Shown: positions 22,701 through 45,084 of the stretch, piece after piece
Numbering within the stretch: position 1 is the first letter of the stretch
Layout: each line of letters starts with the position of its first letter
Assembly: GCA_030765185.1 (NCBI GenBank)
Contig: JAVCDE010000003.1
Span: 38-64,037 of the forward strand
From: Candidatus Aceula meridiana
GTDB taxonomy: Bacteria; Omnitrophota; Gorgyraeia; Zapsychrales; Aceulaceae
Direction of reading: 5' to 3'
Length of the DNA: 64,000 nt
Notes under the pieces: generated by a model
Told to the model about the DNA's origin: nothing
The model's input: only the letters and a program-made list of their open reading frames with translations
Databases searched by the model: none
Made by a program: the position numbers and the translations under genes

Positions 22701-25175
22701 AGCGCGGAACAACCTCAGATCTTACTTGATCTTATTAAAAAAGTTCCCGCATTTGGCCTTCAAAATTTTAATGCACGATTTAGATCAAAAGATCTTCGAG
22801 AAGATTTTGCAAGTGGACTCATTGAGATTCTTGAGAATAATCCTGATATTGTTTTTGAATATGCAGACAATATTATTCAACGAAATTCAGACTTTTTTCT
22901 AAACAAAGAGACTGGATTTTCTAAAAAACTTAAAGGAAAAACAGAAAATGAAAAAATTTCACTTCTCATTTCTTCACTAAGAATTCTTGCGGGAGCAAAA
23001 ATGCCTTACGATAAAGAGCATATCAACAATGCTGTTTCTTTGGCTATTGATTTTCAAGAAATTAGTGGCAACGAAATATATTACGATAAAAATACAACAG
23101 TTATTAATATCCTAAACGTTGAAGAGCAGTTCCTTAAGGCAGACGCAGAGGAGCTTGCGGAATTAGGCGGAGTTCCTAAAAATAAAATATTTTCCTTTAA
23201 AGGGGGAGAAGAGAGCAAAGAAGATGTTATTGAAGCCTTAAAGGCAAGTCAGGGTACACGAGTTATTCTTTTTAATGGACACAATACGCCAATCTTTGAA
23301 CGAGACGAAGTAGAAGACTATGGAATTGATTGGGAAATTTTATATGATGATTTAGTAGTCAAAAATAACTTTGCAACTGAAGAATATGAACAAATGATAC
23401 TTATTGAAAATTTAGATAAAATTAAAGAATATTTAAAAACAGTTCATGACCAAGATACATTTAAAAAGATTTCACATTTCTTAGACATAACAGCAAATCG
23501 CCTTGCCTTTGATTATGGAGTATATCTAAATTACGAAGAAATAGTAAATGCGCTCGGAGTTTCTGGAGATTTTAGCCAGACACGTCTCATTAACCTTAGT
23601 TGTGATTCATATAATCACAACTGGTCTTTTGTTAATTTTTTAAATCAAAATTTTTCTCAAAATCCACAAGTCACAGTTTCTGAGGCCGATAGAGGAGAGC
23701 CTGGATCAGGAAAAGAGGCCGATTACTTAAGGTCCATAATAAAAACAGTTAAAGAAGAACGAGGCAACGATCAAGAAAAGAAACCAATTCTTGGGCGACA
23801 CTTCTTGGCAGCAAAAACAGATGCCGTCCTCTCTAAACAGCATCCTGTTATCTTCTTTTTTCCAGGAAAACAAGTTGTCCGAGACCTATTTGTTAAATAT
23901 TTTGGTGAAAAAGGCACCGAGTATTACGATGAATTTTACAATAAAAATGATGATATTGACAATCTTCCAGAGGGTGGAATGGAGACAGGGTGGATTTTAA
24001 ACACCAAACTCAAAAGCCAAAATCCATTATTAGCATTTCAGGTCTCGTTATCTCCGAATAACAGTGTAAACGAAAACAATATTTTATTCGGAAAATTAAA
24101 TACAGATGTTTTGGATCAAGGAGAGGTTCTTGGAGCAAGCAAGGGAGATACTTTTTATCCTTCTGAATTTTACGACATGACAGCTGCAATGTTTACGGCT
24201 GTTTTAAGAAATGAAGATTTAGAAGTCCTTACTGAGAATGGAGGAAAACAACTTTTAGTTGAGCGTGTTGAAGCTCCCCAAAAAGCATCGAGTAGCCAAG
24301 CTGCATCTTCTGTTATTCGGAGCGAAGATGGAAAGCTCGAGATTCAAAAGCTTCCAAATTTAAAGCAAGTAAAAGATGCATCAAAAAAATCTATCATTAT
24401 AAAAGAAAACCAAGGACAACCAAGCCAAGGCCTTGCCCCTATGAAAAGTGAAAAAGAATTCTTGTTTTGTCATGCCATCATTCTTCGCAATAAAACAACC
24501 GATAAATATGTATTCTTGCATTTAGCTGATGGATTAAAAGAAACTGGAAGCGAATTCTTAGCCCGAATCAATAATACTCAAACACAAAAAACAACTGAAA
24601 ATAAAAAATTTGGAGAATTAACTTTTGGAGAACTCTTAGAATCTCTAGGAAAGGGCGAAAAAGAAGCTATTTATCTAGCTCGCAATAAAGCAGAGGCAAA
24701 AAAATCAGAAGAATATCTATCAAATAAATTTAATATTAAAACATCACAATTTGTCGAAATCACTGGGAAAAATCTTGTTTCTTGGAATATGATTTTTGAG
24801 CCAGAAATAAATGAAATTATTGTCTATGGGGGCAGAGAAGCTTATAGCTTTCAAGCTTTTGCTGAATCTTCAGAAGAAAATGTTAAAAATAGAAGCGCTA
24901 AAAAAACTGCATCATCCAAGATTACATCTACAGGTGGTATCGACTTTAATGCTGAAAACATGAACGTTACAACTAAAGGCGATCAAATTAATTTTAATGT
25001 TCCAATCGATATGCAAAATATTAGCTCAAGTAGCATTGAAGGTTTTGTGCCGATTATTATTAATATTACTCCTGTGACAAATTTTATAGGTCTTCTAGGC
25101 CTTGATGATACGGACAAAAAGGATGCCGAACAGATTAGTTATATATCTGAACTCATAGGAGATAAGCAATCTTGA
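19734..25175 (+). CDS. Giant hypothetical protein (1813 aa): signal peptide plus one internal TM helix, otherwise unrecognisable
   Basis: Uninterrupted 5.4-kb ORF; N-terminal signal-like segment ending AMAQG; hydrophobic helix near residue 375-395; Lys/Glu/Asn-rich remainder. Confidence 0.6.
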   Translation: MFHYYHKSHFSLKVIILAVIFIFTVNTIIPSQAMAQGVLGLPVPGTMVSLSPAFTPTILRGIRVYPDNSLKFDFIVDSGDTGLKGTALKNESERLIKYFLAALTIPEDNLWVNLSPHEKDRIIPDSLAQTDMGTDMLAQDYLLKQITASLIYPEDELGKQFWQKIYKKAYEEYGTTKIPVDTFNKVWIMPEHAEVYVKDDRAFVVESKLKVMLEEDYLALEKSAESRATRNAAQSSHANKKADNKLASNIVREIVIPALEKEVNQGKNFAQLRQIYNSLILAYWFKNNLKSSIVNQVYSDQQKVKGVDVENVSQDIYKQYLKSFEKGVCDFIKVEYDQYAQKNIPRKYFSGGVAFGDGASSAITFKKAKTPEGQKAASVIGKVLGNAAFVILVTVVLTISAFSGPPLKANQEVSNKSQIHNVDLGNFSSLEIQNNSFPLDRFSKEDDSLKSSKNKNSEVVNQQNMTVFSDYEEINKRYGFSPNSNSLKALKKLSRMGLNVLRGENEYSNGVAAWQIIALSKEPEVADAIAQEDFEQFYYRVNDTIFGGKGFRKIEDLLGVCDLYNHFLKHQDDKEMFYSSRFKDALNYVRTKFPKLQISTESAVHVLNLARNFDEKETKKIVTQFESSQEGQEIFINDLFVLDYCRINPRFYHFLFNRKDLEKEVLSTIYREPEKDRESGVWYKKERLSSEEINQYPTLFLLRSLLVYESLRKDSDFKDQIIRQIARIYYQDHQDQTTEYGGYLSLKDGKILFNLQAGYSHYNDTFSTRDIMMPIFADFHLHPFDVVDGEIIQNWSGPSEADFKVSINENTGLSQGFVFSAFSDQDDQVKVNIDTYIGDYFFKPFFFKFPKNLNLDLGIITLPDNQDSFKPVEEYSGKDLKRIWKILRKFIKEENKRAQKPETSKKFADLEKKAQKNPEDLFIPENPYYKNLADSVKRAPEKYSKEIIMNFSDIAPFFKNKNNFREILKDAMNKYPELAIKFWAYSYFESAEQPQILLDLIKKVPAFGLQNFNARFRSKDLREDFASGLIEILENNPDIVFEYADNIIQRNSDFFLNKETGFSKKLKGKTENEKISLLISSLRILAGAKMPYDKEHINNAVSLAIDFQEISGNEIYYDKNTTVINILNVEEQFLKADAEELAELGGVPKNKIFSFKGGEESKEDVIEALKASQGTRVILFNGHNTPIFERDEVEDYGIDWEILYDDLVVKNNFATEEYEQMILIENLDKIKEYLKTVHDQDTFKKISHFLDITANRLAFDYGVYLNYEEIVNALGVSGDFSQTRLINLSCDSYNHNWSFVNFLNQNFSQNPQVTVSEADRGEPGSGKEADYLRSIIKTVKEERGNDQEKKPILGRHFLAAKTDAVLSKQHPVIFFFPGKQVVRDLFVKYFGEKGTEYYDEFYNKNDDIDNLPEGGMETGWILNTKLKSQNPLLAFQVSLSPNNSVNENNILFGKLNTDVLDQGEVLGASKGDTFYPSEFYDMTAAMFTAVLRNEDLEVLTENGGKQLLVERVEAPQKASSSQAASSVIRSEDGKLEIQKLPNLKQVKDASKKSIIIKENQGQPSQGLAPMKSEKEFLFCHAIILRNKTTDKYVFLHLADGLKETGSEFLARINNTQTQKTTENKKFGELTFGELLESLGKGEKEAIYLARNKAEAKKSEEYLSNKFNIKTSQFVEITGKNLVSWNMIFEPEINEIIVYGGREAYSFQAFAESSEENVKNRSAKKTASSKITSTGGIDFNAENMNVTTKGDQINFNVPIDMQNISSSSIEGFVPIIINITPVTNFIGLLGLDDTDKKDAEQISYISELIGDKQS

Positions 25176-32300: not shown

Positions 32301-32761
32301 AATTTCGTATTTACTTCCGTATGTTGTTTGGTGGAGGTGAAGCTGATTTAATTTTGGTTGATCCTGAAAATGTTTTAGAGTCCGGCATTGATATTGTGGC
32401 TAAGCCACCGGGGAAAAAGCTTCAAAATATTACGCTTTTATCAGGTGGAGAAAAAACCATGGCGGCTATTGCACTTATCTTTGCCGTTTTTAAAGTAAGG
32501 CCGTCTCCGTTCTGCGTTCTTGACGAAATTGATGCAGCGCTAGACGAGTCTAATGTCGGCCGCTATAGCTATCTTTTGCAAGAATTCTCAAAGATCGCGC
32601 AGTTTATTGTTATCACGCACAACAAAAAGACTATTTCTGCTGCTGATGTTATGTACGGCATCACTATGCAAGAGCGCGGTGTTTCGAAAATTGTGTCCGT
32701 TAAGTTATCTGAAGACCAAGAAGAGGTCGGAAGTCGGGAAAAGATTCCTGCCGCCGTCTAA
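29363..32761 (+). CDS. smc: Chromosome segregation protein SMC
   Basis: N-terminal Walker A GPNGCGKSN, long coiled coils, hinge, C-terminal LSGGEKT signature and DE Walker B. Confidence 0.95.
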   Translation: MYLKRIEIFGFKSFADKTVLNFEPGITAVVGPNGCGKSNVFDAIRWVLGEQSMKELRGSTKEDVIFNGTSKRPALNFAEVSLTFSNENKVFPIEYDEVTVSRRVYRSGESEYLLNKTQVRLKDILELFMGTGIGAEAYSLVQQGRVDLIVSARPDDRRLIFDEAAGITKYKAKKREALNKLKDTDNNLLRSNDIILEVKKQIASIERQAKKAQRYKEEYERLKIMEFIFAEDQIANLDKNRTDLESALSEFGQQEQALHDDLTRLNQVLSDENKLIAELDQKENELHQEDIKLENQIEMENRQINFNEERITTIDSNEERIKEQKNKLTEQCHSQEGKITNLREAFDLLRQEVVKNTEQLASQRLCLQELESQIQLTKNAIRQEEEEIFQLSTSQVNFKNEVTEIMKDFQGALARKRRLDLENDKVINEKQEIDIKLEVVNQDISRCLEEINRLRSEKNTKDGSLNETKHQLADLAQTITTLENTILGLKSKREFIEEMRVQYENTTDPISSGRFITRMPPPDGIQGMIGRIKEVTKLEGERRRALDGRFTDNPNEELYEIVCETKFIELDPEQITAKIDALAEQVTYKNEEKRNILIKIAEQESDINRLGILVHDKEKEMSGFVADKNNVLEVVSKLADELTLITQEIVETKEVLADLKANEDELNERLASVNEKIESFKGTINQQQSDIVAKTQNREGILIEVTQLETELESSKEQEEGQQENLRLFEGSLITTRQELDRIERESQESHVKRQEYLKSNEQIHLKIEDLKIKRDELKICLNNYEQQKQEVYTRIQELRPRIGEVEKGLEAVKEQSHNQALKRQELSFGEQSVKDKLLQTYKIDFDEFARPEEEGSIESLEVFDFSTLNPDQDQELIQQEKEKIAFKELKERLVTIRPEIQTEGLEDEVERLKKRCDSYGSVNLVAIDEHEELKQRFEFLTKQQTDLLEAKQSLMNAITKINRTTRQLFVDTFTKVSEEFRIYFRMLFGGGEADLILVDPENVLESGIDIVAKPPGKKLQNITLLSGGEKTMAAIALIFAVFKVRPSPFCVLDEIDAALDESNVGRYSYLLQEFSKIAQFIVITHNKKTISAADVMYGITMQERGVSKIVSVKLSEDQEEVGSREKIPAAV

Positions 32762-32771
32762 GGGAGGGACT

Positions 32772-33116
32772 ATGGATTCGAGTGAAAAAAGAAGATATCT
32801 AAGGTTTAGAATTTTTATGGATGTAGACGTAATAGGCTTTGAAGCAAAGAATTCTTTAAAAGGAACATTAGAAAATATTTCTAGGCAGGGCATTGGTATT
32901 ATTTTAAAAAAGGGTAAAAAGCCCAAGGGTACTGAAGTTGATTTGAACTTGCATCTTGATTCTCAAAAAAAACCTGTTTCAGCTAGAGGGAGAATTACCT
33001 GGATAGAGGAAGAAAGTAATAAAAACCGTCTAGGAGTTGAGATTAAAAGGATTGACAAAGAGGTTCAGGATGATATTCTTGATATAGCTTATCAAGACTG
33101 GAAAGCCCAAATTTAA
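32772..33116 (+). CDS. PilZ domain protein (c-di-GMP receptor)
   Basis: RRYLRFR (RxxxR) and ENISRQG (D/NxSxxG) PilZ motifs; GGGAGGG RBS before the ATG at 32772. Confidence 0.7.
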   Translation: MDSSEKRRYLRFRIFMDVDVIGFEAKNSLKGTLENISRQGIGIILKKGKKPKGTEVDLNLHLDSQKKPVSARGRITWIEEESNKNRLGVEIKRIDKEVQDDILDIAYQDWKAQI

Positions 33117-33138: not shown

Positions 33139-34842
33139 ATGACAGAAAAAAGAGAAAAAATTGGTGATTACCTTTTAAAAAATGGAACTCTTTCGCAGGA
33201 GCAGCTTATCCTTGCCTTAGAACATCAAAAAGAAAATGAAAAATTCCTTGGTGAAATTCTTGTTGAAAAAGGATACGTTGCCGAAGAAGAAGTCGCTGCC
33301 GTCTTAGCTGAACAATTTAACCTCCCGTTTATTCTTTTAAGTGCTTGCCCCATTGACGATACCCTCAAGAAACTTTTTCCTGTTAACAAAATGAAACAGT
33401 GGAAGATTTTTCCCATTAAGCTTGAGGGAGACATCTTAACTGTTGCCGTAACCAATCCTTTAGATATTAAAATGATGCAGGAGCTCAAGTATTTAAGCGG
33501 CTATAAACTTGATTTAGCTGTTACAACCTCCAAAGAAATTTTCGATTGCATTCATAAGAATTTTGGGTCTAATGCTAACCTTGAAGAAGCCATTGCAGAT
33601 GTAAGTTTCCGAAGTCAGTCTCAGGCATTTAATTTAAAGGGAGATATGAAAACCCTTGAAGAGGCTGTTCAAGATGCTCCCATCGTCAAGTTGGTTAACT
33701 CTGTTGTTGATGAAGCGATTAAGCAAAATGCTTCGGATATTCATTTTGAGCCACAGAAAGCAGCGCTTCGCATCCGTTATCGTGTCGACGGAGTTTTATA
33801 TGAGTCTTTCAATGTCCCTAAGGAGCTTCAGCTTCCTGTGATTTCACGTATCAAGATTATCAGCGGTATGGATATTTCAGAAACGCGCCGTCCCCAGGAT
33901 GGACGCATGAGCTTTGAGATTAACCACAGGTCTTATGATATCCGTACATCGACTTTGCCAGATTCTTTTGGTGAAAAAATTGTTATGCGTATTTTAGATA
34001 AAGAAAATATTTTTCTTGAGATTAGAAATTTAGGCCTTAGCGACAAAGAATCTCAGTTTGTAAAGAATCTTATCCAGATTCCTTATGGAATTATTTTGAT
34101 TACAGGCCCAACCGGAAGCGGAAAAACGACTACGCTTTATTCAATGCTTAACCAGCTTAATGACGAAACGCGTAATATCGTAACAGTGGAAAATCCGACT
34201 GAGTATCAGCTAGAAGGGATTAATCAAACAGAAGTTAACGAGAAAGCAGGGTATACGTTTGCGACAGGCATGCGCCATATTTTGCGACAGGACCCTGATG
34301 TCATTATGATTGGAGAAATCCGCGACTTGGAAACGGCGGAGATTGCCGTGCAGGCTGCGCTAACAGGGCATTTAGTTCTCTCGACGCTGCATACGAATAA
34401 TGCCGCCGGTAGTGTCGTGAGGCTTTTAGATATGAACGTAGAACCTTTTTTAATTGGCTCTTCCGTGGTTGGAGTTGTCGCTCAAAGGTTAGTACGCAAG
34501 CTATGTCCACACTGCTCAAAGGAAGAGGATATCTCTGTCGAAGTTGAAAAGAGTATTTTAAAATATGTTCCGGATTTCAAAAGTCGTAAATTTGCAAAAC
34601 CCGTAGGATGCAAGAAGTGCCGGAATATTGGCTATCAAGGGCGGACAGGAATTTTTGAAATGATGAACGTCACCCCTGAGATTAAAGAGATGATTATTAA
34701 AAGAGCAACGGAGGCTGAGATTGAAAAGAAAGCTATTGAGCAGGGAATGAGCACGTTGCAGATGAGTGCTATTGAAAAAGCTTCACAAGGCGCAACTTCT
34801 CTTGAAGAAGCCATGCGCGTAACCTTTGTTAGGATGGTGTAA
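33139..34842 (+). CDS. pilB: Type IV pilus assembly ATPase PilB/GspE family with N-terminal MshEN-type (T2SSE_N) domain
   Basis: N-terminal KIGDYLLKNGTLSQEQLILALEHQ (MshEN-like); Walker A GPTGSGKTTT; Asp and His boxes; tetracysteine CPHC...CKKC. Confidence 0.9.
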   Translation: MTEKREKIGDYLLKNGTLSQEQLILALEHQKENEKFLGEILVEKGYVAEEEVAAVLAEQFNLPFILLSACPIDDTLKKLFPVNKMKQWKIFPIKLEGDILTVAVTNPLDIKMMQELKYLSGYKLDLAVTTSKEIFDCIHKNFGSNANLEEAIADVSFRSQSQAFNLKGDMKTLEEAVQDAPIVKLVNSVVDEAIKQNASDIHFEPQKAALRIRYRVDGVLYESFNVPKELQLPVISRIKIISGMDISETRRPQDGRMSFEINHRSYDIRTSTLPDSFGEKIVMRILDKENIFLEIRNLGLSDKESQFVKNLIQIPYGIILITGPTGSGKTTTLYSMLNQLNDETRNIVTVENPTEYQLEGINQTEVNEKAGYTFATGMRHILRQDPDVIMIGEIRDLETAEIAVQAALTGHLVLSTLHTNNAAGSVVRLLDMNVEPFLIGSSVVGVVAQRLVRKLCPHCSKEEDISVEVEKSILKYVPDFKSRKFAKPVGCKKCRNIGYQGRTGIFEMMNVTPEIKEMIIKRATEAEIEKKAIEQGMSTLQMSAIEKASQGATSLEEAMRVTFVRMV

Positions 34843-34843
34843 G

Positions 34844-36043
34844 ATGCCAAAATTTTTATACAAAGTCAAAGATATAGACGGCAAACTGCTTGTCGGTGCG
34901 CTAGAGGCAGAAAATGAAAGATCTGTCAGACATATTATTACTGAGAAGGGTTATTTTGTTATCAACGTTCAGAAAATGAAGAAAACAAAATTAGCTGGAT
35001 TTGGAAAGCCGGTGAGCATCGATAGCCTCATTCGTTTTACGCATAAACTCAGCGCGATGTTTAAAGCCGGGGTTCCTATTTTGACAGCTTTAAGAATGTT
35101 GTGGGAGCAAGGCGAAAACAAGTATCTTCAGATTATTACCAGTGAGATTATTACAGATATTAGTCAGGGTGAATTATTTTCGGATTCGTTGAGAAAGTTT
35201 CCTGAGGTCTTTTCTGAGATTTATATTAGTCTTGTTCAGGTTAGTGAAAGCAGCGGGGATTTTCCGCAGGCCTTAGAGCAAATCATTGCACACTTAAACC
35301 GTCAGAAAGAGATCAGGCGAAAAGTGCAGAACGCTCTTATGTATCCTATTATTGTTGTTGTTATGATTATTGCTGTTATCATCGCAATGCTAGTGATTGT
35401 TATCCCAGTCTTTAAAAAGATATTCTCGGACATCAACGTTGATCTCCCGTTCATCACAAGAATGTTTATTTTCTTGTCTGATAATTTTATTCGTTATTGG
35501 TGGGTGGGGTTTGTTATTACAGGAGTATTGGTTTTTGTTTATCGAAAATATAAAAAGACCCCGCGCGGGGCATATAAAATCGATGAATGCAAACTGCGTA
35601 TTCCAACTATAGGTCAATTAATTTATTACGTTGCACTTTCGAAATTTATTCACTCGTTTTATGCTTTATCCGTTAGCGGTGTTGAAATCTCAAAGACTTT
35701 AGCCAGTTCTGCGCGTAGTTGTGCCAACAGGGTATTAGAAGGGAAAATTAGTTCTGCCACAGAATCTATTGTTAAGGGAAAGAGCATTAGTCGGGCACTT
35801 CAGGAGGCAGGGTGTCTGCCTGCTTTTTTTGTGCAAATGCTTTCGATTGGGGAGACAAGCGGATCGATACTCAATATGATGAAAATTTTAATGACATTTT
35901 TAGATGATGAAATTGATTTTCAGATTAATAAAATTTTTACGATTTTAGGGCCGGCTACGATTATTATTGTCGGGTTTATTGTCTTGTTTGTTTTACTAGC
36001 TATTTATTTCCCGATATTTACATTGTGGGGTAATATTGGATAA
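34844..36043 (+). CDS. pilC: Type IV pilus inner-membrane platform protein PilC/GspF family
   Basis: Two T2SF repeats and three TM helices; ATG at 34844 after the pilB stop. Confidence 0.85.
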   Translation: MPKFLYKVKDIDGKLLVGALEAENERSVRHIITEKGYFVINVQKMKKTKLAGFGKPVSIDSLIRFTHKLSAMFKAGVPILTALRMLWEQGENKYLQIITSEIITDISQGELFSDSLRKFPEVFSEIYISLVQVSESSGDFPQALEQIIAHLNRQKEIRRKVQNALMYPIIVVVMIIAVIIAMLVIVIPVFKKIFSDINVDLPFITRMFIFLSDNFIRYWWVGFVITGVLVFVYRKYKKTPRGAYKIDECKLRIPTIGQLIYYVALSKFIHSFYALSVSGVEISKTLASSARSCANRVLEGKISSATESIVKGKSISRALQEAGCLPAFFVQMLSIGETSGSILNMMKILMTFLDDEIDFQINKIFTILGPATIIIVGFIVLFVLLAIYFPIFTLWGNIG

Positions 36044-36159: not shown

Positions 36160-36525
36160 ATGATGAAAAGGAAAGGTTTTACATTGGTAGAAATACTCTT
36201 TGTTGTAGTCATCGTTGGCATCTTAGTCGCTATTTTGGTGCCAAATGCTTTAAAAGCCGTTGCTGCTGCTAATACAAAAGCATGCGCTGGCAACATTCGT
36301 TCGATTGATGCTGCATTTGTGGCTTGCTATGCGGATACGCGCGATTGGGCTAGCTGCGATGACATAGCTGCCTTGGTAACCGGAGGCTACTTAGAAGATA
36401 CCCCTGTTTGTCCAATTGGTGTAGATTATGCAGCAGACTCAACAAATGGGAGGCGATGTGCCAGGACAGGCCACTTTAGCGCCGGCAACTTCCCGCATAC
36501 GCACGATGCAGTAGTAGTAGAGTAA
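36160..36525 (+). CDS. pilA: Type IV major pilin (PilA-like), class III signal peptide
   Basis: MMKRKG|FTLVEILFVVVIVGILVAILVP prepilin cleavage/N-methylation motif with Glu5; 121 aa, Cys-rich C-terminal head. Confidence 0.85.
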   Translation: MMKRKGFTLVEILFVVVIVGILVAILVPNALKAVAAANTKACAGNIRSIDAAFVACYADTRDWASCDDIAALVTGGYLEDTPVCPIGVDYAADSTNGRRCARTGHFSAGNFPHTHDAVVVE

Positions 36526-36554: not shown

Positions 36555-38051
36555 ATGACAATTCTTGAATTAGGATATAAAAAGATACGTTGTCTTGTTT
36601 ATCAAAAACAAGGAAAAGGTATTGCTATTCAAAAAGCTGAGAGTTTTAATTTTGATAGCGATATCTTTCCAATTCAGGATATAGGGAAAGCGGCGAAGCC
36701 GATAAAAGATTTCTGTAAAGAAAAAAGAATATCTACTTCGCCGCTTTCTTTGATTATTTCTCACCCGGGCGTTATTTTTAGGGACCTCACCTTGCCGCCT
36801 ATGTCGCACAAAGAAATCGAAGCCGTTATTATTAACGACATCGAAAGAGGCCCTCGTTTTTCTTCCAAAAAATACCTTTATACATATTCCGCACACTATA
36901 TGACGGGTGGCCGTAAAATTCGCGTAGTTTATTTTGTGCTTGAAAAAGAAATTCTTAATAAAGCTATACGGCTTGTGAAGGCAGCAGGATTTTCTTTAAA
37001 ATCCGTAAGCCTTTGTCCGGCTACACTTTTAGGTTTGCCAGCTGTAAATCCTTTAGATGGCAAAGATTTGATGCTTGTTTATCCTCAAGAAAAAACAACA
37101 TATGCCGTTATTACTAACGGAAAAGTTTGTCAGGGCATTTATACTATCGACATAGGACTTAAAGATATTTATGACAAAGAAGGCAATCAGATTAAAGAGA
37201 AACAGTTTGGCCTCTTCGGCGAAGAAATTCGTCGTACTTTAAAATCGTATGAAACTGCACAACATGCTATTATTTCCGAAGTTATTTTATTTTCTGACAA
37301 CCAACTAACCGGTGATTTAAGCGAGAAGATAGCTTCTTCCTTGGGTCGCACGGTTAAGGCTCCGCAGCTTCCGGCTCAGGCAAAGATTTCAAGCAAAGTA
37401 ATTGATGCACCACTCGATGGAACCTATTTTAGCTGTCTAGGAAAAGCCTTAGAGCCCTTAAGGGGAAACCCTTGCTTTAATTTTTTAAAAATTTGGGATT
37501 ACCGCAAAACTTCAGAATATAAAAATAAAGTTTTATTGTTTGTGGGGATTTATTTAGCGGTGGTAGGGATACTTTTCTTTAAGCCTGTTTCTCAGGTTTA
37601 TAACAAAGTAAGCGATGAGAACAGGCAAGGAATTGCTCTTATGGCGAAGACTGAAGGGCTAGAGGCTCGAACAAATATTTTAGAACAGCAACGAAAGCAA
37701 TATCTAGCGACAAAAAATAATTTACTTCGGCAGGCGACAGTGGTTCATAAACTGAAAAAGATATCTTGGTCAGAAGCATTTTTTAAAATTGGTGAAGTTT
37801 TACCCGAGGATATCTGGCTGACAAGTTTTGTCTTGGGAAAATCAGGAAGTTTTTACCTTAAGGGAAAAGGCATGACCTTAGATTCTGTTGCTGCTTTTAT
37901 TCGCGCGTTAAAAAAAGTTGATTTATTCGGTGAGGCAAAATTAAAATCGACGCGGGAAGCCAAAATCGAAGAAGAAATAGTACGTGAATTCGACATAGAA
38001 TCTTTTGTCATTGTTTCGCCAGACGAAACAGTGGACAAGAAAGAAAAATAA
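36555..38051 (+). CDS. PilM-PilN fusion protein (actin-like PilM domain, TM helix, PilN-like periplasmic domain)
   Basis: About 320-aa PilM/FtsA-like N-terminal region, a TM segment (VLLFVGIYLAVVGILFF), then a roughly 170-aa coiled-coil/periplasmic region; locus context. Confidence 0.65.
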   Translation: MTILELGYKKIRCLVYQKQGKGIAIQKAESFNFDSDIFPIQDIGKAAKPIKDFCKEKRISTSPLSLIISHPGVIFRDLTLPPMSHKEIEAVIINDIERGPRFSSKKYLYTYSAHYMTGGRKIRVVYFVLEKEILNKAIRLVKAAGFSLKSVSLCPATLLGLPAVNPLDGKDLMLVYPQEKTTYAVITNGKVCQGIYTIDIGLKDIYDKEGNQIKEKQFGLFGEEIRRTLKSYETAQHAIISEVILFSDNQLTGDLSEKIASSLGRTVKAPQLPAQAKISSKVIDAPLDGTYFSCLGKALEPLRGNPCFNFLKIWDYRKTSEYKNKVLLFVGIYLAVVGILFFKPVSQVYNKVSDENRQGIALMAKTEGLEARTNILEQQRKQYLATKNNLLRQATVVHKLKKISWSEAFFKIGEVLPEDIWLTSFVLGKSGSFYLKGKGMTLDSVAAFIRALKKVDLFGEAKLKSTREAKIEEEIVREFDIESFVIVSPDETVDKKEK

Positions 38052-38683
38052 TGAAACAAAAAACTTCTCTTAGCGTGACAAAGATGATTGCTGTTGGGAT
38101 TTGTCTCTTGATTACGGCAGTCGCGATTTTTTCTTTGAAATATTTTAAGGCAAAAAGGCTAAGCCTTCAGGCTGAAAATAAATTTTATCAGCAAAGAAGT
38201 GAGACAGCCGAAGAGAGAATAACCCAGCTTGATGTTCTTCTTGGAGAGTATTACGAAGATATTGAAAATTTTGAGAAATTTTTATTTAAGGAAAAGGATA
38301 TTCCTCTTTTTCTAGAGGACATGTCAGACTCTTCGGAAGAATTTGAAATTGCGGTTAAAAATATTCAAGCCCTTGAAATTAAGGAAGTCGAAGTCGAAAA
38401 GGCGCCTCGCACCGCAGAAAAAATTGCTCAAAATCAAAGTAGGAACTCTAATAAAAAAGAACTTGATACGAATATTCTTGTGATGGTTTCAACACCTTTT
38501 AAAATTAATATTGAAGGAAAATTTCGTGATGTATTGCAGTTTATTCTTTCAGTTGAAGAAAGCCGACAATTGTTAACGGTTAGTGAGGTAAAGATTAGCT
38601 CTCGGAAATATCCTGTTATTCTAGGGGAATTTCGACTAGATCTTTATAGTTTAAGCGGGTTAGAGGAGAAGAAAGCAGAATGA
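38051..38683 (+). CDS. PilO-like type IV pilus assembly protein
   Basis: N-terminal TM helix, coiled coil, C-terminal ferredoxin-like region; position after pilMN. Confidence 0.55.
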   Translation: MKQKTSLSVTKMIAVGICLLITAVAIFSLKYFKAKRLSLQAENKFYQQRSETAEERITQLDVLLGEYYEDIENFEKFLFKEKDIPLFLEDMSDSSEEFEIAVKNIQALEIKEVEVEKAPRTAEKIAQNQSRNSNKKELDTNILVMVSTPFKINIEGKFRDVLQFILSVEESRQLLTVSEVKISSRKYPVILGEFRLDLYSLSGLEEKKAE

Positions 38684-39162
38684 AAAAAAACTTCGCCATC
38701 ATTTTAGCCTTTATTACAATTAGTTTAGTTTCGACTAGCTGTGATATGAATCCTTTTTCTGCGAAGCAAGAATCTCTTAGGCTTGAAGATGAATCTTTTT
38801 ATATTCAGGATATTGAATTGGCCAAGGCCCTGGTATGGCCGAAACCAAGAGAGATTTCGTTTGAACGTGATGTTTTTCGTCCGCTTGTTGGAGAAGGTGC
38901 TGGATCAGCATCGATAACAGGCAGAACTGGTGAAGAAGGAAACACGCAAGTGGCAGACCTTGATCGATTTGTACTGACTGCAACATTTTTATCAGATAAT
39001 TCTATTGCCTATATTAAGCCGAAGGATGAAGGTAAGGCGTTTTTTGTTCATGTCGGAGAAAAAATAGGCAGTGCTGTTGTTAAAGAAATCAAGCGCAACG
39101 AAGTAATCGTTGAGCTTGAAGGCCAAGAAATATTTTTAAAAATTTTAGGGGGTCAAAAATGA
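38680..39162 (+). CDS. PilP-like lipoprotein
   Basis: Lipoprotein signal (LVSTSC), C-terminal beta-rich domain; ATGA coupling with both neighbours. Confidence 0.5.
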   Translation: MKKNFAIILAFITISLVSTSCDMNPFSAKQESLRLEDESFYIQDIELAKALVWPKPREISFERDVFRPLVGEGAGSASITGRTGEEGNTQVADLDRFVLTATFLSDNSIAYIKPKDEGKAFFVHVGEKIGSAVVKEIKRNEVIVELEGQEIFLKILGGQK

Positions 39163-40964
39163 TAAAATTAAAATATTTATTCTTTATTTTTCTTGTTATT
39201 TTGTTTGCCTTTGCATCCTATCTGCCTGCGGCTTCAGCAGAAGGAAATCGAGGGTTTCTTTATAGTGCTGACGTGAGCACTGACGTGGCTAGTGATGCCG
39301 AGATGGCTAGCGATGTCGAGATGGCTAGTGATGCCGACGTGGCTAGCGATGTCGAGATGGCTAGTGATGTCGAGATGGCTAGTGATGCTGATGCGGTTGG
39401 CGATGCTGACACGGTTAGCAATACTGACGCGGTCGGCGATGTTGAGGCGTTGACTGCTTCTATCTTAGCGGAACGCGATACTGTTCAAGAAATTCAGGCT
39501 GCTTCTTTAAGCGAAGAATATTTAAGGCGAGGAGAAGAAGAAGCTAACAAGCTTGCCATGGAGAGGGTTTCCAAAGAGCCTCAATCAAGGGGGGAAGAGC
39601 TTCCCGTTAAGCAAGCTTTTTGGCAAGAGGCAAAAGTAGAAGTTCCTTTAGAAGAAGAGCTTCAGGAAGATGTCCTTGAGGTGGAAGATTTAGACGAGTG
39701 GGCAGAAGAAGAAGGTGTTCAAGCGCAGGAGCCTGCTGAAGAAGTTGCTGAAGCCGTTGTTGAAGCTGCTCCTCTTAAAAAGGAAGCTCTTTTTGATTTT
39801 ATCGCAGAAAATTCTGAAGAGAGAATTTCATTAGATTTTGATAATATAACTTTAGAGGAGGCGCTTCGGGTAGTAGGCGAAGGAAGCAATATTAATATCG
39901 TTGTTGACCCCTTGGTAAGAGATAAGAAAATTACTCTTCATTTAAAGGATGTTACAGTTCCTGAAGCTTTAAAATTGGTTTTTCAGTCCTATGATTTATC
40001 TTTTTCAAAGACAGGAAATTCGATGTTTGTTTCCACTAAAGATAAAATTATTTCTATGGCATCAATCAATAAGGTTATTCGATTAAAGAATATTAATGCT
40101 GATGATGCTCAAAAACTTGTTAAGGATTTAGCTCAATCTGTTACTGCTGACAAAGGAATTAATGCTTTAGTGATTACTGGAACTGAAGCCCAGGTTGCAG
40201 AGATCGAGCGTATTTTAGCAGAAATTGATGTGTCTCGCAGACAGGTTTTATTGGTTACACAAATTTTAGAGATTGATAAAGATTCTTTGGAGGAACTCGG
40301 TGTGGATTGGTCGGATGAACTTGCATTTTCATTCCAAGAATCTAGATTTGACCCTGATATTGTTGGAACAACGGTCACAGACCCCTTGGATGCTTTTAAC
40401 ATCTATCGCTTCGGCAGAACGCCTATGCAGCTTTCGGCAACAATTAAGATGTTGATTCAAAACAATAAGGCAAAAATTCTTTCAAATCCGAAGATTGCAA
40501 CTATTAGCGGCGAAGAGGCTAGTATTTTTATAGGGGATAGAGTTCCCTACGAGGTGACAAGAATTTCTGGTGGGGTTTCCAATACTGAAGTCGAGTTTGT
40601 TGAAGCTGGCATTCGCTTAAATATTCTTCCTTCAATTATTGAAGAGGACTATGTGGTCGTTAGTGTAAGACCTGAAGTGAGCTTTATCCATTCTTGGCGC
40701 GGAGAAAATGATCAGTATCCATGGGTAAGAACCCGTGAAGCCTCTGCAAGTGTTAAGGTTAAAAATGGAGAGCCTTTTGTTGTGGGTGGCTTAATAAGTG
40801 AAGAAGAAAAAGAAAATATTTACAAAATTCCTGTGTTGGGAGATATTCCATTCTTGGGGGCGCTTTTTCGATACAAGAACACAACGGTAGATAATAAAGA
40901 AATTATTATCACGGTTATTCCACAAATCATGATGGAAGAGCCTCTAACTGCATCAAATATATAG
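39159..40964 (+). CDS. pilQ: Type IV pilus secretin PilQ with N-terminal acidic hexapeptide repeat region
   Basis: Signal peptide; (ASDVEM)-like repeats; C-terminal secretin domain (ILSNPKIATISGEEASIFIGDRVPY ... PVLGDIPFLGALFRYKNT). Confidence 0.85.
   Translation: MIKLKYLFFIFLVILFAFASYLPAASAEGNRGFLYSADVSTDVASDAEMASDVEMASDADVASDVEMASDVEMASDADAVGDADTVSNTDAVGDVEALTASILAERDTVQEIQAASLSEEYLRRGEEEANKLAMERVSKEPQSRGEELPVKQAFWQEAKVEVPLEEELQEDVLEVEDLDEWAEEEGVQAQEPAEEVAEAVVEAAPLKKEALFDFIAENSEERISLDFDNITLEEALRVVGEGSNINIVVDPLVRDKKITLHLKDVTVPEALKLVFQSYDLSFSKTGNSMFVSTKDKIISMASINKVIRLKNINADDAQKLVKDLAQSVTADKGINALVITGTEAQVAEIERILAEIDVSRRQVLLVTQILEIDKDSLEELGVDWSDELAFSFQESRFDPDIVGTTVTDPLDAFNIYRFGRTPMQLSATIKMLIQNNKAKILSNPKIATISGEEASIFIGDRVPYEVTRISGGVSNTEVEFVEAGIRLNILPSIIEEDYVVVSVRPEVSFIHSWRGENDQYPWVRTREASASVKVKNGEPFVVGGLISEEEKENIYKIPVLGDIPFLGALFRYKNTTVDNKEIIITVIPQIMMEEPLTASNI
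39288..39449 (+). repeat. Nine tandem 18-bp repeats (consensus GCTAGTGATGTCGAGATG) inside pilQ, encoding (A/V)(S/G)D(A/V)(E/D)(M/V/A)
   Basis: Read directly; additional degenerate copies lie upstream at 39265-39287. Confidence 0.8.
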
Positions 40965-41058
40965 ACTTAAGCGAGTTTCCTTGAGCTTCCCACCGCCTTG
41001 CTATCGGTATATATATAGTGTATACTTTTAATAACATTTTTATATTTTGGGGGTTTTT

Positions 41059-43284
41059 ATGTCAAGGCAGATATCTTCCGTATATAACAAAAAAGCTTTT
41101 ACCCTTGTCGAAGTTCTCATCAGCATTGTAATTTTATCAGTCACCTTAACGGCTACTTATTTTTCTTTTTCTGCGCTATCGAAGCAAGAAGTACTTTCCC
41201 GTGATCTTCTTACCGCAAAAAATATTTTAACTTCTGAATTTGAAAAAGTTAAGCAAAGAACTTTAAACGAAGAAAACTATTTTGATCAAATCGATGACGA
41301 GACTATGGACGGATCGCTAAGTCCTGTTGATGCTGCAGGGTATCCTGCAGGTTTTTTTCAGGAGAAAAAAGTTTTTTTAGGAGTTAATGGCGATCTTAAG
41401 AAATTTTTTATTGAAGTCCAGTGGACAGAAAGAGGAAAAAATCATTTGATTAATAATGCGTTTTATTTGGCGCTGCCACCATATGCTCTTCCCGGAAACA
41501 TTGCGGGAACTATTACAGCAGGGACAGTAGAGCAGTGTGCCGCAGACCAAGGCTCTTCTCTTTCTGATTCTGATGTCCAGATTCTCCAAGGAGGCGGCTT
41601 TGAAAATAGTTTTGTTAACACTGATGCAAGCGGATATTATGATTTTAGTTCCTTAGCAGAAGGGTCTTTTATTTTACCTCGTGGAAATGACTATCGTCTA
41701 CAAGTCTCTAAAACAGGGTACACAATTTATCGAACGCCGCAAGATAGTCTTATTACAGTTAATGCTGGCGAAGAAACAATCCAGAATGCTTGCCTTACAC
41801 CGGCAGGAAGTGCAACAATTAAAGGATCCGTTGAGGATACTTTGGGGAACCAAATTCTTAATCAAGCTGTTTCCTTGTATCAGGATGGGGAATTTGTTCA
41901 AACAGTTTTTAATGGGGTCAATGGATTTTCTTTTAACGTTCCGATTGAAGAACCAAGTGGAGAGAGTTTTTCCTTGATTACAAGTGGCGAAATAGATAAT
42001 ATTACTAATTCGGGCTTTCCTTTTCAACGAGTTAACGGGGATGAATTTTGTGGGCTTATGTGCCCGGCGATGCCAGGGTGGGATTTTAACTATAGTTATC
42101 GGGGATGGTCATCTGCCGTGTCTTTAAATGAAACCTACACTCTTGGTTCGGGATATATTACTACGGAGTGTTCGAATCCTTGGGTCGGCAGTGAGGACGC
42201 AGACCGCATTTTTGTGCAGCCAGGAGATACAGAAGATCTTGAGAGCATTATCCTTGATCACGTCCCAACAACAACAGTAGCAGGTTTTGTAAGAGAGGGT
42301 AGCTCAAGTGGTCCTGGGGTTGCAGGGGCAGCAATTAGCGGTCGGTGGTGGTGGAATGTTAATCTTTATGATAGCGATACGACAGAGGCAGATGGTTCTT
42401 ATGAACTTGATACTCCAGCGATTCAAGAGCTTTTTCCAGACACTTATTCGTATCATTACAAGATGTCTGTCGAGGCTCCTGTGCCAGAGCCGAATTGTTG
42501 TGATGAAGTAACTCAAACGCAAACTGCGGCTTCAAATTTTAGGCCTCTTTATAAAAATCAAACGGCCAATAAAGATTTTGTTTTTTCAATCGGTGTGCCA
42601 CCTGAATGCGGCGACCTTGGAGGATATGTCCGAGACTCGCAAACAGGTATTAACCTTCAAGGGGCCTCGGTATACGTGTCAGGAGAGGGGCAGGAAAGTA
42701 CTGGAGGAGGAAATGATTTAGGAAAATATCGGTTTGCTTGCGAAAGCTCCCCTAATCCTCCACCGTATTGCCTTGAAGCGAGCGCCAATAGCCGAGGTTA
42801 TCAGGTTTCAAAGAGCGGCTATTATTCTTTGAGAACCTGGTCTGGGTCTTGGCCGTATGTGGGCCTTAATGAATTGATTATCCCGGCCAATCAGGTGACA
42901 ACGGCAGATTTTAGCATTTTAAGGCTCGGCAAGGGTTCTGCCGATGGAACAGTTGTTGATTCTGCGACAAAAGATCCCATCGAGGGGGCGATTGTTCACG
43001 TCTACAGATATTCTGATGATTCTATTACAAAAGTTAGCCAGACTCCAAGCAGCGGATTTTTTAATATTAATAATATTTATGAAAGCTGGCCTAAGCAGGA
43101 GTGGTTTAATGCGGGATGGAATGTACCGCCACAATTTGATCCAGCGCTAGAGCGACATAGAGTTGTTGTTTCAAAAGAAGACTATGAGAGCAAAGAAATT
43201 CTTGATGTCATTATCATTGATGGGCAAACAACGCATTTAGGGACTATCGAACTAGACCCTGTAAGCGTTGGAGGTGGTGTGTAA
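41059..43284 (+). CDS. Large (742 aa) pilin-like protein: N-terminal prepilin-type hydrophobic domain with Ala at the -1 position, followed by beta-rich carboxypeptidase-regulatory-like/adhesin-like domains
   Basis: MSRQISSVYNKKA|FTLVEVLISIVIL (Glu5 present; Ala rather than Gly before Phe1); repeated GYY...G motifs in a Gly/Ser/Thr-rich body. Confidence 0.6.
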   Translation: MSRQISSVYNKKAFTLVEVLISIVILSVTLTATYFSFSALSKQEVLSRDLLTAKNILTSEFEKVKQRTLNEENYFDQIDDETMDGSLSPVDAAGYPAGFFQEKKVFLGVNGDLKKFFIEVQWTERGKNHLINNAFYLALPPYALPGNIAGTITAGTVEQCAADQGSSLSDSDVQILQGGGFENSFVNTDASGYYDFSSLAEGSFILPRGNDYRLQVSKTGYTIYRTPQDSLITVNAGEETIQNACLTPAGSATIKGSVEDTLGNQILNQAVSLYQDGEFVQTVFNGVNGFSFNVPIEEPSGESFSLITSGEIDNITNSGFPFQRVNGDEFCGLMCPAMPGWDFNYSYRGWSSAVSLNETYTLGSGYITTECSNPWVGSEDADRIFVQPGDTEDLESIILDHVPTTTVAGFVREGSSSGPGVAGAAISGRWWWNVNLYDSDTTEADGSYELDTPAIQELFPDTYSYHYKMSVEAPVPEPNCCDEVTQTQTAASNFRPLYKNQTANKDFVFSIGVPPECGDLGGYVRDSQTGINLQGASVYVSGEGQESTGGGNDLGKYRFACESSPNPPPYCLEASANSRGYQVSKSGYYSLRTWSGSWPYVGLNELIIPANQVTTADFSILRLGKGSADGTVVDSATKDPIEGAIVHVYRYSDDSITKVSQTPSSGFFNINNIYESWPKQEWFNAGWNVPPQFDPALERHRVVVSKEDYESKEILDVIIIDGQTTHLGTIELDPVSVGGGV

Positions 43285-43288
43285 AAGA

Positions 43289-43774
43289 ATGAAAAAACAA
43301 AAGGGACATACTTTAATCGAAATGCTTTTTGTGGTCACGTTAGTTGGTATTGGTATGGTTTTGTTTTCAGCAGTCTTTTTTTCAGGCTGGATAAATTATG
43401 AGGTTAATCTAACGCGGCTTAATCTTCAGGCTCAACTCGACAGCGCTTTAACAATGCTAGAAGAAGATGTCTTAGAAGCAGAGGATTTTCCAACGATTAG
43501 CGGAACAACCAGTATTTTACTTAAGTATCCTAATAGTCCAAATTTTTTAGTTCAACAAAGAACATATCAAATTGATGTTGATGGGAGTCTTATTCGGATT
43601 TCCGGTGCTTCTAGCGAAGTTTTAATTAATCAGCTTTTAGACACAGGAAAATCTCAGTTTTATCAAGATAGTCAAGTAAATAATGTGTTGGTTTGTGATT
43701 TGACATTACAAGAGAGAACCTTTGGCCATCTCGTTGTTGCCAACGGGCAAAAAAAGATTGCAGTAAGAAATTAA
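43289..43774 (+). CDS. Minor pseudopilin (prepilin-type N-terminal cleavage/methylation domain; GspH/FimT-like)
   Basis: MKKQKG|HTLIEMLFVVTLVGIGMVLF. Confidence 0.7.
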   Translation: MKKQKGHTLIEMLFVVTLVGIGMVLFSAVFFSGWINYEVNLTRLNLQAQLDSALTMLEEDVLEAEDFPTISGTTSILLKYPNSPNFLVQQRTYQIDVDGSLIRISGASSEVLINQLLDTGKSQFYQDSQVNNVLVCDLTLQERTFGHLVVANGQKKIAVRN

Positions 43775-43788
43775 TAGGAGCTTTTTTG

Positions 43789-45084
43789 ATGAAAATTCAT
43801 CGTATATGTAAAGAAAAAAAAGGTTTCACCCTTGTTGCAAGCATCATGGTATCTTTGGTTTTAGGAATTATCATGATGGTTTCTTTTATCCGTGCTGCAT
43901 CTCACATGGGTTTTCTTCGTTCGAGCCAAGATGGCAAAGATGCTCTTTGTGCGGCATTTGTTGGTCTTGAAAACGCCTTGAACCAGTTAAGAACTGACAT
44001 TGACTGGGTTGGAAACCCAGTCGGGACTTTTATTCCGATTGATGAAACCGTTGACGAGAATGTTAAGAATTTTGGAGATTATAATGTTTGGATTGATGTT
44101 GCCGGTACGACATATTCCCCAAATGGCGTATGGAGGCTTATTCCTGCAATTATTACAGGACGCAATTCAATTCAGAATTCAACCCACACAGCAATCAGGC
44201 AGTTAAGTGTTTTGATTAAAGCACAATCCCCTGCAGCTTTTTTTATATCAAGCTTGTCACCTTTAACGATTCAAGCAGGGGCGGATATCGGGTCCAATGT
44301 TTTGGGGCTTGATATTGCCTTTGGCGCAGCGACGGAAGAACACCCGATTAATATTAACAATGGTGGAAATGCCATTTATTTAAGAAATCTTTCCGGAGAA
44401 GATAATCCTAATATTCATTTTAACGGTGATCCTGCAGGAGAAATTAGGCAAAGCGAGCCAATTACCTTTGTCGGGATTGATAAAGACCGGTATATTGATA
44501 ATGCCCAGAATGGTGGTGGATATTATCATCAGGGGGGAGGCACTTTAGTTATTGACAATGCTGTTTTAGATAGAAATAATTATCTTTTTTCAGGTATAGA
44601 TAACGCTGAAAATGGTTTTGTGTATGCTGATGGAGATGTTGAGATTTCTGTCCAGGAAGTCTTAGATCCTATGGTTATTGTCGCTGGCGGGAATATTTAT
44701 ATCACAGGAGATATTAAATATGATAATATTTCTGATCCCTTTCTTGGGGACCAATTGATGCAGTTAGGGTTGTTTGCTAAAGGTGATATTATTATTGAAA
44801 ACCCAGGAGGAGGAGATAGGACTATTGAAGCTTTTCTTTCCTCAGAGGGAAATCTGAAAGCACTGGGGGACAGAAACGAAAACGGGGTGCTTGATTTTTA
44901 TGGGGCTATGGCGATACGCGGAAGGGACGATAATACGGGATCGGCTATTAATCTTTCAACCTTTCAAGACAGGAATTACCGCTACCACAGTGCGCTTCTT
45001 ACAAACAGTCAAATCGAAATGAACTATATGGCAGATGTTGTTGAATGGTCAATTATTGGCGATCCGGTAGACCTTGCCAACTAG
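43789..45084 (+). CDS. Large minor pilin, GspK/PilX-like (prepilin-type N-terminus lacking Glu5)
   Basis: MKIHRICKEKKG|FTLVASIMVSLVLGIIMM with Ala at +5; 431 aa. Confidence 0.5.
   Translation: MKIHRICKEKKGFTLVASIMVSLVLGIIMMVSFIRAASHMGFLRSSQDGKDALCAAFVGLENALNQLRTDIDWVGNPVGTFIPIDETVDENVKNFGDYNVWIDVAGTTYSPNGVWRLIPAIITGRNSIQNSTHTAIRQLSVLIKAQSPAAFFISSLSPLTIQAGADIGSNVLGLDIAFGAATEEHPININNGGNAIYLRNLSGEDNPNIHFNGDPAGEIRQSEPITFVGIDKDRYIDNAQNGGGYYHQGGGTLVIDNAVLDRNNYLFSGIDNAENGFVYADGDVEISVQEVLDPMVIVAGGNIYITGDIKYDNISDPFLGDQLMQLGLFAKGDIIIENPGGGDRTIEAFLSSEGNLKALGDRNENGVLDFYGAMAIRGRDDNTGSAINLSTFQDRNYRYHSALLTNSQIEMNYMADVVEWSIIGDPVDLAN

Follow-up and report, generated by a model that had tools for sequence, protein, structure and literature searches.

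A predicted modular minor pilin with a five-repeat stalk in a type IV pilus operon of Candidatus Aceula meridiana (Omnitrophota)

Introduction

The stretch of DNA analysed here (the window, 64 kb of a 203-kb contig) comes from Candidatus Aceula meridiana. Candidatus Aceula belongs to the phylum Omnitrophota, within the PVC (Planctomycetes, Verrucomicrobia and Chlamydiae) group. On its forward strand, the window carries a gene for a 741-residue protein (41059..43284) in which a type IV pilin module is followed by five predicted beta-sandwich domains and a family-specific insert. We consider this protein likely to be a modular minor type IV pilin of an Omnitrophota machine resembling the type IVa pilus (T4aP), belonging to a priming or tip complex and bearing an adhesin-like stalk. 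The sequence features, the conservation within the family, the position in the operon and the predicted fold were computed; from them we infer cleavage, incorporation into the filament, location at the tip and an adhesin function, and display of the protein at the tip as an adhesin is probable.

The protein combines an N-terminal pilin module with domains that have no specific tie to type IV filament biology, as modular pilins in the sense of Raynaud et al. (2021) do. Such pilins are widespread, numbering over 1,200 proteins in 264 architectures, and are likely tip-exposed (PMC8179133). The PF13620 domain, described as a ‘carbohydrate-binding-like fold’, is among the modules most commonly grafted onto them, and its combination with N_methyl has been catalogued (PMC8179133). 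The modular type IV pilin class, the N_methyl plus PF13620 architecture and the presence of Ala before the cleavage site are all already known. An initial annotation of this gene held that its product is not a standard minor pilin, which is right insofar as the protein is modular, but the class itself had been described, and this architecture is one of its commonest.

What is new is a coherent family of modular pilins with a fixed operon position, which on present sequence records is confined to Omnitrophota as far as its members are named. The stalk of five repeats with a conserved, unique insert is also new, as is, at the level of sequence, the exchange of Gly, Ala and Ser before the cleavage site in minor pilins of an operon whose major pilin has Gly only.

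Omnitrophota are uncultured, ultra-small bacteria. T4aP clusters occur in nearly all of them, and these near-universal pili have been proposed to serve in attachment to host cells (Seymour et al., PMC10066038). The protein described here is discussed neither in that study nor in a 2026 preprint on Omnitrophota. It is reasonable to regard its family as a candidate for the pilus component that contacts the target, which makes it worth binding and localisation studies.

The gene and its prepilin-like N-terminus

The open reading frame is intact and runs from an ATG at 41059 to a TAA at 43284, with a Shine-Dalgarno-like GGGGG run 5 nt upstream of the start codon. The frame given in the initial annotation stands, while its length of 742 residues does not, since the 742 codons include the stop. 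The translation is identical to NCBI entry MDP8265431.1, from a metagenome-assembled genome of Candidatus Aceula, which is annotated as a prepilin-type N-terminal cleavage/methylation domain-containing protein. The 94-nt gap between the preceding secretin gene and this gene contains one weak promoter-like site (40998-41026); counts of such sites are not clearly above the shuffled background, and the site was not used as evidence.

The N-terminus has the features expected of a type IV pilin (PF07963/TIGR02532/IPR012902). A hydrophilic leader of 13 residues, MSRQISSVYNKKA (41059..41097), ends in Ala at position −1, after which cleavage by a prepilin peptidase is predicted from the sequence. It is followed by FTLVEVLISIVILSVTLTATY (also written FTLVEVLISIVIL), with Phe at +1 and Glu at +5, within a stretch of about 20 hydrophobic residues. 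The protein passes the Pfam profile N_methyl (PF07963; cut-off 21.2) with 28.6 bits and the NCBIfam profile TIGR02532 (IV_pilin_GFxxxE; cut-off 16.3) with 23.0 bits. The pilin-like start that had been noticed from the sequence alone is thus real, including its Ala at −1 as well as Phe at +1 and Glu at +5. A merely coincidental resemblance is ruled out by the curated profiles, by a conserved helix-plus-sheet module and by the operon context.

The residue before the cleavage site

In a curated alignment of 71 full-length homologs, position −1 is occupied by Ala in 32, Gly in 28, Ser in 8, Cys in 1 and Asn in 1. A broader set of 86 N-terminal motif matches, which are family proteins of 560-900 aa with a few spurious cases from truncated sequences, gave Gly in 39, Ala in 33, Ser in 8, Cys in 1, Asn in 1 and other residues in 4, so that Gly, Ala or Ser is found in 80. 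Phe is present at +1 in 76 of these matches and Glu at +5 in 79. On a neighbour-joining tree of the 71 homologs, built with the signal peptide left out, the state at −1 changes at least 25 times, compared with 29.8 +/- 2.1 times when the labels are shuffled. The number of changes is close to the shuffled level, which indicates that Gly, Ala and Ser interchange almost freely at this position.

A comparison of eight loci (the window and seven related contigs) places this exchange within one type of operon. The residue at −1 is A, G, G, G, A, A, A and S in the big pilin represented by our protein, G, G, G, A, S, G, G and S in the small pilin encoded after it, and G, G, G, S, G and G in a further pilin-like protein that lacks Glu5. 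The major pilin has Gly at −1 in all four loci in which its gene is present. Relaxation at −1 is therefore a property of the minor pilins in operons of this type, and the peptidase of the lineage must accept all three residues. The archaeal peptidase PibD accepts Gly, Ala or Ser. The family thus offers a clean natural data set on the interchange of these residues, which can inform rules for pilin prediction that demand Gly.

Two members fall outside this range: one has Cys at −1 (KKC/FTLIEV, the slash marking the predicted cut; P0014) and the other Asn (KKN/FTLVEV; OQX79897.1, P0020). Together with the Ser cases, they slightly exceed the textbook statement on this position.

According to reviews, the leader peptide of prepilins ends in Gly or Ala (PMC10191384; PMC3244431; PMC9934059), and PilD ‘cleaves at a glycine or alanine’ (PMC3244431). 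Ala at −1 is a normal, interchangeable variant that was already known, and given these reviews and the free exchange in the family it is not evidence for an uncleaved protein. It had initially been singled out as an anomaly, a view that does not hold with 32 of the 71 homologs carrying it. Nor are the orthologs uniformly Gly at this position; the same 32 sequences rule out a sequencing or variant artefact.

The initial annotation had also raised an uncleaved protein, that is, a bitopic adhesin anchored in the inner membrane, with Ala(−1) blocking the prepilin peptidase and the beta-rich body lying in the periplasm. From the work of Strom and Lory in 1991, Ala is reportedly a poorer substrate than Gly for Pseudomonas aeruginosa PilD, which would agree with such an anchor. 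A search by regular expression found no prepilin peptidase motifs in the window, which is a weak negative pointing the same way. On the other side stand the status of Ala as an ordinary cleavage-site residue, the change of Gly(−1) to Ala that Strom and Lory are said to have found tolerated in P. aeruginosa PilA, and the tree, as 25 or more switches would imply that proteins of this family repeatedly changed between a cleaved and an uncleaved lifestyle. Moreover, Phe1 and Glu5, which have a part only in processing, in methylation and in the assembly of the filament, are both nearly invariant while −1 swaps freely, and this argues for processing and incorporation into a filament. In a diderm cell, the body of about 600 residues of such an anchored protein would be trapped beneath the outer membrane. 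We regard an uncleaved anchor as very improbable.

Domain architecture and predicted fold

An AlphaFold (AF2) model calculated from 71 sequences (m64947f587705) reached a mean predicted local distance difference test (pLDDT) score of 88.8 and a predicted template modelling score (pTM) of 0.60, while a model from nine sequences was poor (pLDDT 65). The former shows, in order, a disordered leader (residues 1-13), a long helix alpha1 (16-70), a short helix (74-77), a beta-sheet head (88-138) and a series of beta-sandwiches. The pilin module spans residues 14-140 (41098..41478), with Phe1 and Glu5 on alpha1, and has the lollipop fold of type IV pilins, in which a long alpha1 helix bears a globular head with an antiparallel beta-sheet. 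Its pLDDT is mostly 83-96 and lower at the first residues of the helix. When a profile of this module was compared with the sequences in the PDB, the N-terminal half of the helix (alpha1N) was the sole match and the head had no relative among solved structures by sequence, so that the module cannot be assigned to a GspH/I/J/PilV class.

The pilin module is connected to the first beta-sandwich by a linker, RPPxPLPGNIxG (residues 136-150; 41464..41508), which is the most conserved stretch of the family in the alignment conservation profile. The body that follows (residues 146-741) consists of Gly, Ser and Thr to 28% and contains G[YF][YF] motifs at residues 192, 587 and 666. Its first domain, D1 (residues 146-247; 41494..41799), is recognised at residues 162-244 by the Pfam profile CarboxypepD_reg (PF13620) with 64.2 bits against a cut-off of 32.3. 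The shorter D2 (residues 248-312; 41800..41994) has predicted strands at 250-307 and is related by hhalign to D5 (95.5%), D3 (89.9%) and D1 (78.6%). D3 (residues 384-514; 42208..42600) contains a conserved PAxQELFP motif and a pair of cysteines at 480-481, and is followed by D4 (residues 515-622; 42601..42924), which was delimited from the AF2 model and hhalign. D5 (residues 623-735; 42925..43263) shows weak matches to CarbopepD_reg_2 and SpaA and a conserved ETWPP motif. Besides the pair at 480/481, conserved cysteines of the family are found at 517 and 561.

The five beta-sandwiches are homologous repeats according to hhalign (D1-D4 98.8%, D1-D5 98.4%, D4-D5 97.5%, remaining pairs 75-97%). 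Apart from D1, they are recognised only by hhalign or by sub-threshold matches to CarbopepD_reg_2 (PF13715). No tandem DNA repeats were found inside the gene, which indicates that the protein repeats are ancient and diverged.

Between D2 and D3 lies the family-specific insert (residues 313-383; 41995..42207), with near-invariant G349-W-S-S352, C371, G377 and D382. Profile-profile comparison of segments found no similarity between this insert and the rest of the protein. Its pLDDT was below 50 in the model from nine sequences; in the model from 71 it is mostly 79-96 and falls to about 65 at residues 311-320. The insert is a candidate functional site.

The initial description as a pilin-like protein of unusual size is supported. 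The repeats had been likened to carboxypeptidase-regulatory and Cna-B-like domains. The first part of this comparison is borne out by the PF13620 match and by the homology of the five sandwiches, and the second applies to the fold only: SpaA scores 17.6 against a cut-off of 23.1 and SdrD_B 17.9 against 29.7, so that profile scores give no CnaB/SpaA/SdrD-B isopeptide-type stalk domain. A Foldseek search of the PDB returned stalk-forming surface proteins made of CnaB/prealbumin-type sandwiches, with E values of 1e-14 to 1e-8 for the top matches. Among them were the TIE protein of Bacillus anthracis (6fwv, the top match), streptococcal and lactobacillal sortase pilins, the Cna B repeats (1d2p), SdrD and the MG domains of alpha2-macroglobulin. 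The TM-scores are low (0.1-0.2 on the query), which means that the match is by individual domains only. The match to 6fwv suggested a TIE-like reading with thioester or isopeptide bonds; the SpaA and SdrD_B profiles stay below their cut-offs, and the spacing of conserved Cys and Gln residues in the family is unlike what we take to be the thioester and isopeptide motifs.

Distribution of the family

A word-indexed search yielded eight full-length homologs with 26-32% identity to the protein, and its repetition with a profile gave nothing beyond these first nine proteins. When 1.8 billion representatives were searched exhaustively with a profile, 256 matches were obtained at E <= 1e-30. About 100 of these (as representatives at 50% identity) are full-length proteins of ~600-800 aa matched in a single stretch, and the remaining ones are giant multi-repeat proteins matched through the beta-sandwich repeats only. 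All family members whose source name is complete belong to Omnitrophota/Omnitrophica (RKY28174.1, OQX79897.1, MFP4472642.1 and the Aceula protein), and three other source names read ‘Candidatus’ only. A scan of reference genomes with the family alignment was swamped by the generic motif FTL[VI]EVL and produced two irrelevant N-terminal matches, in SAR86 (L005) and in Verrucomicrobiia (L006).

The giant proteins (P0016, P0051, P0059 and others) are 1,100-6,300 aa long and contain up to 59 matches to the beta-sandwich repeat. Judging from these matches, the repeat unit is also a building block of very long proteins from metagenomes.

Operon context and filament type

The gene lies in a type IV pilus cluster on one strand, whose order is conserved in related loci, and is thus associated with genes for the assembly of type IV filaments. 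In all eight loci, the order secretin – big pilin – small pilin is preserved. A pilin-like protein of ~400-430 aa without Glu5 comes next wherever the contig reaches, and pilB, pilC, pilin, pilMN and pilO lie upstream of the secretin gene wherever the contig reaches. The big pilin is accordingly a constant part of operons of this type and not an accessory insertion. Of the options that had been put forward at first, that of a pilus-tip or priming subunit is favoured by this position, which in all eight loci is directly behind the secretin gene and among minor pilin genes.

Two pilin-like partners are encoded downstream. The minor pilin of ~160 aa (43289..43774; KG/HTLIEM, Glu5 present) has its ATG 5 nt past the stop codon of our gene, and in 8 of 8 loci the next gene after the big pilin is an ortholog of it. 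It is followed by the 432-aa protein without Glu5 (43786..45084; KG/FTLVAS), a candidate tip cap by the logic of GspK and PilX. Since it lacks Glu5, like the GspK-type cap subunits, this neighbour is more likely than the big pilin to sit at the very top; the big pilin, in which Glu5 is present, would come just below. The 432-aa protein (KKG/FTLVAS) has no Pfam family at E <= 0.01, and its orthologs have sub-threshold matches to PilX_N and to FapA/MinC_C/bactofilin (beta-solenoid). These sequence matches suggest a cap pilin whose body is beta-helical, which recalls ComZ. A six-frame motif scan found exactly four pilin-like N-termini in the window, namely those of the major pilin, the big pilin and its two downstream partners.

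The small pilin (KQKG/HTLIEM) has His at +1, an unusual first residue for a mature pilin. In its orthologs from the seven related loci, +1 is F, F, S, F, I, M and F, and −1 is G, G, A, S, G, G and S.

Because Glu5 is kept, as in subunits of the filament body, one could also picture the big pilin as incorporated at intervals along the shaft, with its stalks pointing sideways, and Raynaud et al. allow a position in the filament body if the linker is flexible (PMC8179133). With a body of ~600 residues attached by a linker that is short and conserved, a steric conflict would arise both in the helical packing and on the way through the secretin, and the tight packing of the gene with that of a Glu5-less, cap-like pilin is the pattern of a tip or priming complex. 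We consider this shaft-decorating arrangement improbable.

The upstream part of the cluster begins with a PilZ-domain open reading frame (32553..33116), an extension ATPase with MshEN and T2SSE domains (33139..34842) and the platform protein PilC with T2SSF (34826..36043); all three were assigned by Pfam and occur in the same order in one related locus (L001). The candidate major pilin of 121 aa (36160..36525; KG/FTLVEILF) precedes a pilM/N fusion of 498 aa (36555..38051), with Pfam PilN above the cut-off at residues 412-482, and pilO (38051..38683), in which the Pfam PilO match is below the cut-off. A 160-aa protein occupies the PilP position by gene order (38680..39162), and the order from pilM/N to this position is the same in four related loci (L001, L004, L007 and L010). 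Next comes the PilQ-type secretin (39159..40964), with a Pfam Secretin match of 152.9 bits and the STN and Secretin_N domains. Checked against the set of T4aP components, the cluster has PilN, Secretin, T2SSE and T2SSF above the cut-offs and PilO below, and PilT and PilD were not found in the window.

This inventory bears on a further possibility, namely that the protein is a subunit of a short periplasmic pseudopilus, like the endopilus of a type II secretion system (T2SS), with its body engaging secreted cargo or the secretin gate. The cluster has a single ATPase (MshEN + T2SSE), and neither PilT nor a second T2SSE ATPase was seen in the 64-kb window, although PilT could lie elsewhere in the genome. 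A faint T2SSC match in the 160-aa protein before the secretin and sub-threshold GspG and ComGC matches in the major pilin point in the same direction. However, the PilM/N-PilO set and a secretin with STN and Secretin_N are of the T4aP type, and there are no matches above cut-off to GspC/L/M or GspH-K. In the classification of Seymour et al. such clusters count as T4aP, and expression of T4a pili in V. archaeovorus is reported there (PMC10066038). A pseudopilus is, in our opinion, unlikely, and a T4aP-like filament is the reading that we follow below.

Several other features of the window were recorded. The PilZ-domain gene lies directly upstream of the gene for the MshEN-bearing, PilB-type ATPase, a pair also present in L001, which suggests control of pilus extension by cyclic di-GMP. 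As listed, the PilZ open reading frame overlaps the end of an SMC gene, and for this reason its true start is probably an internal ATG. The single 498-aa frame spans the PilM and PilN positions, and a fusion of 489-526 aa is likewise found in L001, L004, L007 and L010. Inside the secretin gene, at 39282-39449 (+), there are 18-nt tandem repeats (5.7 + 3.7 copies), which encode acidic ASD(V/A)EM-type hexapeptides near the N-terminus, followed by a Glu-rich stretch; the length of the secretin varies between loci from 435 to 601 aa. Outside the cluster, an open reading frame of 1813 aa (19734-25175, +) has an N-terminal signal-like hydrophobic segment and no Pfam family at E <= 0.001.

Proposed role in the pilus

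We propose the following course of events for the modular minor pilin. The prepilin would be inserted in the inner membrane so that its leader of 13 residues lies in the cytoplasm, and the prepilin peptidase would cut after Ala13, as it would after Gly or Ser in the orthologs; for the peptidase of this lineage, the three small residues may be functionally equivalent. The new Phe1 may be N-methylated, and Glu5 together with the hydrophobic alpha1N helix would anchor the subunit in the core of the filament. In company with its two downstream pilin-like partners (~160 aa with Glu5 and 432 aa without it), it could form a priming/tip complex of low abundance, which would initiate pilus assembly beneath the secretin. 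The ~600-residue body, with five CarboxypepD_reg-like sandwiches and the insert, joined by the PLPGNI linker, would then project as a stalk from the tip and probably bind a ligand, most likely a carbohydrate, exposed on the surface of a host cell or substrate.

No PilY1-like gene was found in the operon of the window or in the seven related loci, and the pilin-fused stalk may therefore supply the adhesin function. A more far-reaching and rather speculative proposal is that the family is the device by which the Omnitrophota T4a pilus recognises its host or substrate, with a rigid ~600-residue stalk replacing PilY1 and the GWSS...D insert as a putative binding site, while the drift to Ala and Ser at −1 in the minor pilins would tune processing kinetics towards slow, low-copy tip subunits. 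If true, such a recognition role or kinetic tuning would give a handle on how possibly predatory or parasitic Omnitrophota attach to their partners. In other respects, this is one more family in the catalogued class of modular pilins, and no concept is changed.

Comparison with known systems

The closest parallels in organisation are PilB (pilin + vWA) and PilC of Streptococcus sanguinis. Like these, our protein has a pilin module, a class III signal peptide, Glu5 and a short linker to domains that are not pilus domains, and is encoded beside other minor pilins. PilC (52.8 kDa; pilin + Ig-like + lectin) undergoes processing by PilD and functions within a complex of minor pilins that binds glycans (PMC9934059). 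In contrast to both streptococcal proteins, the body of the Aceula protein consists of five CarboxypepD_reg-like sandwiches and a unique insert, not of a vWA or lectin domain; no sequence relationship is detectable past alpha1N; and the host cell is diderm and has a secretin, all named family members being Omnitrophota.

Oversized minor pilins are also known from the type IVb pilus (CofB/TcpB), the T2SS (GspK) and Thermus (ComZ), where they prime assembly at the tip (PMC8179133). In CofB, an extension of beta-repeat and beta-sandwich is linked to the pilin module's C-terminus (PMC8179133). GspK lacks Glu5 and has its extra domain inside the pilin sheet, whereas the Aceula protein has Glu5 and domains appended at the C-terminus. 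Comparisons with Pfam, NCBIfam and PDB sequences found no match of the protein to CofB/TcpB, GspK or ComZ.

The stalk itself resembles those of PF13620/CnaB surface proteins (6fwv, 1d2p and the sortase pilins) in its tandem prealbumin-like beta-sandwiches, but it has no sortase signal, and its anchor is a type IV pilin module instead of a cell-wall anchor. Finally, the role proposed here is that of the T4aP tip adhesin PilY1/PilC, namely a large adhesin presented by a tip complex of minor pilins. PilY1 itself does not belong to the pilins and carries a beta-propeller at its C-terminus, whereas in the Omnitrophota family the adhesin-like body is fused directly to the pilin.

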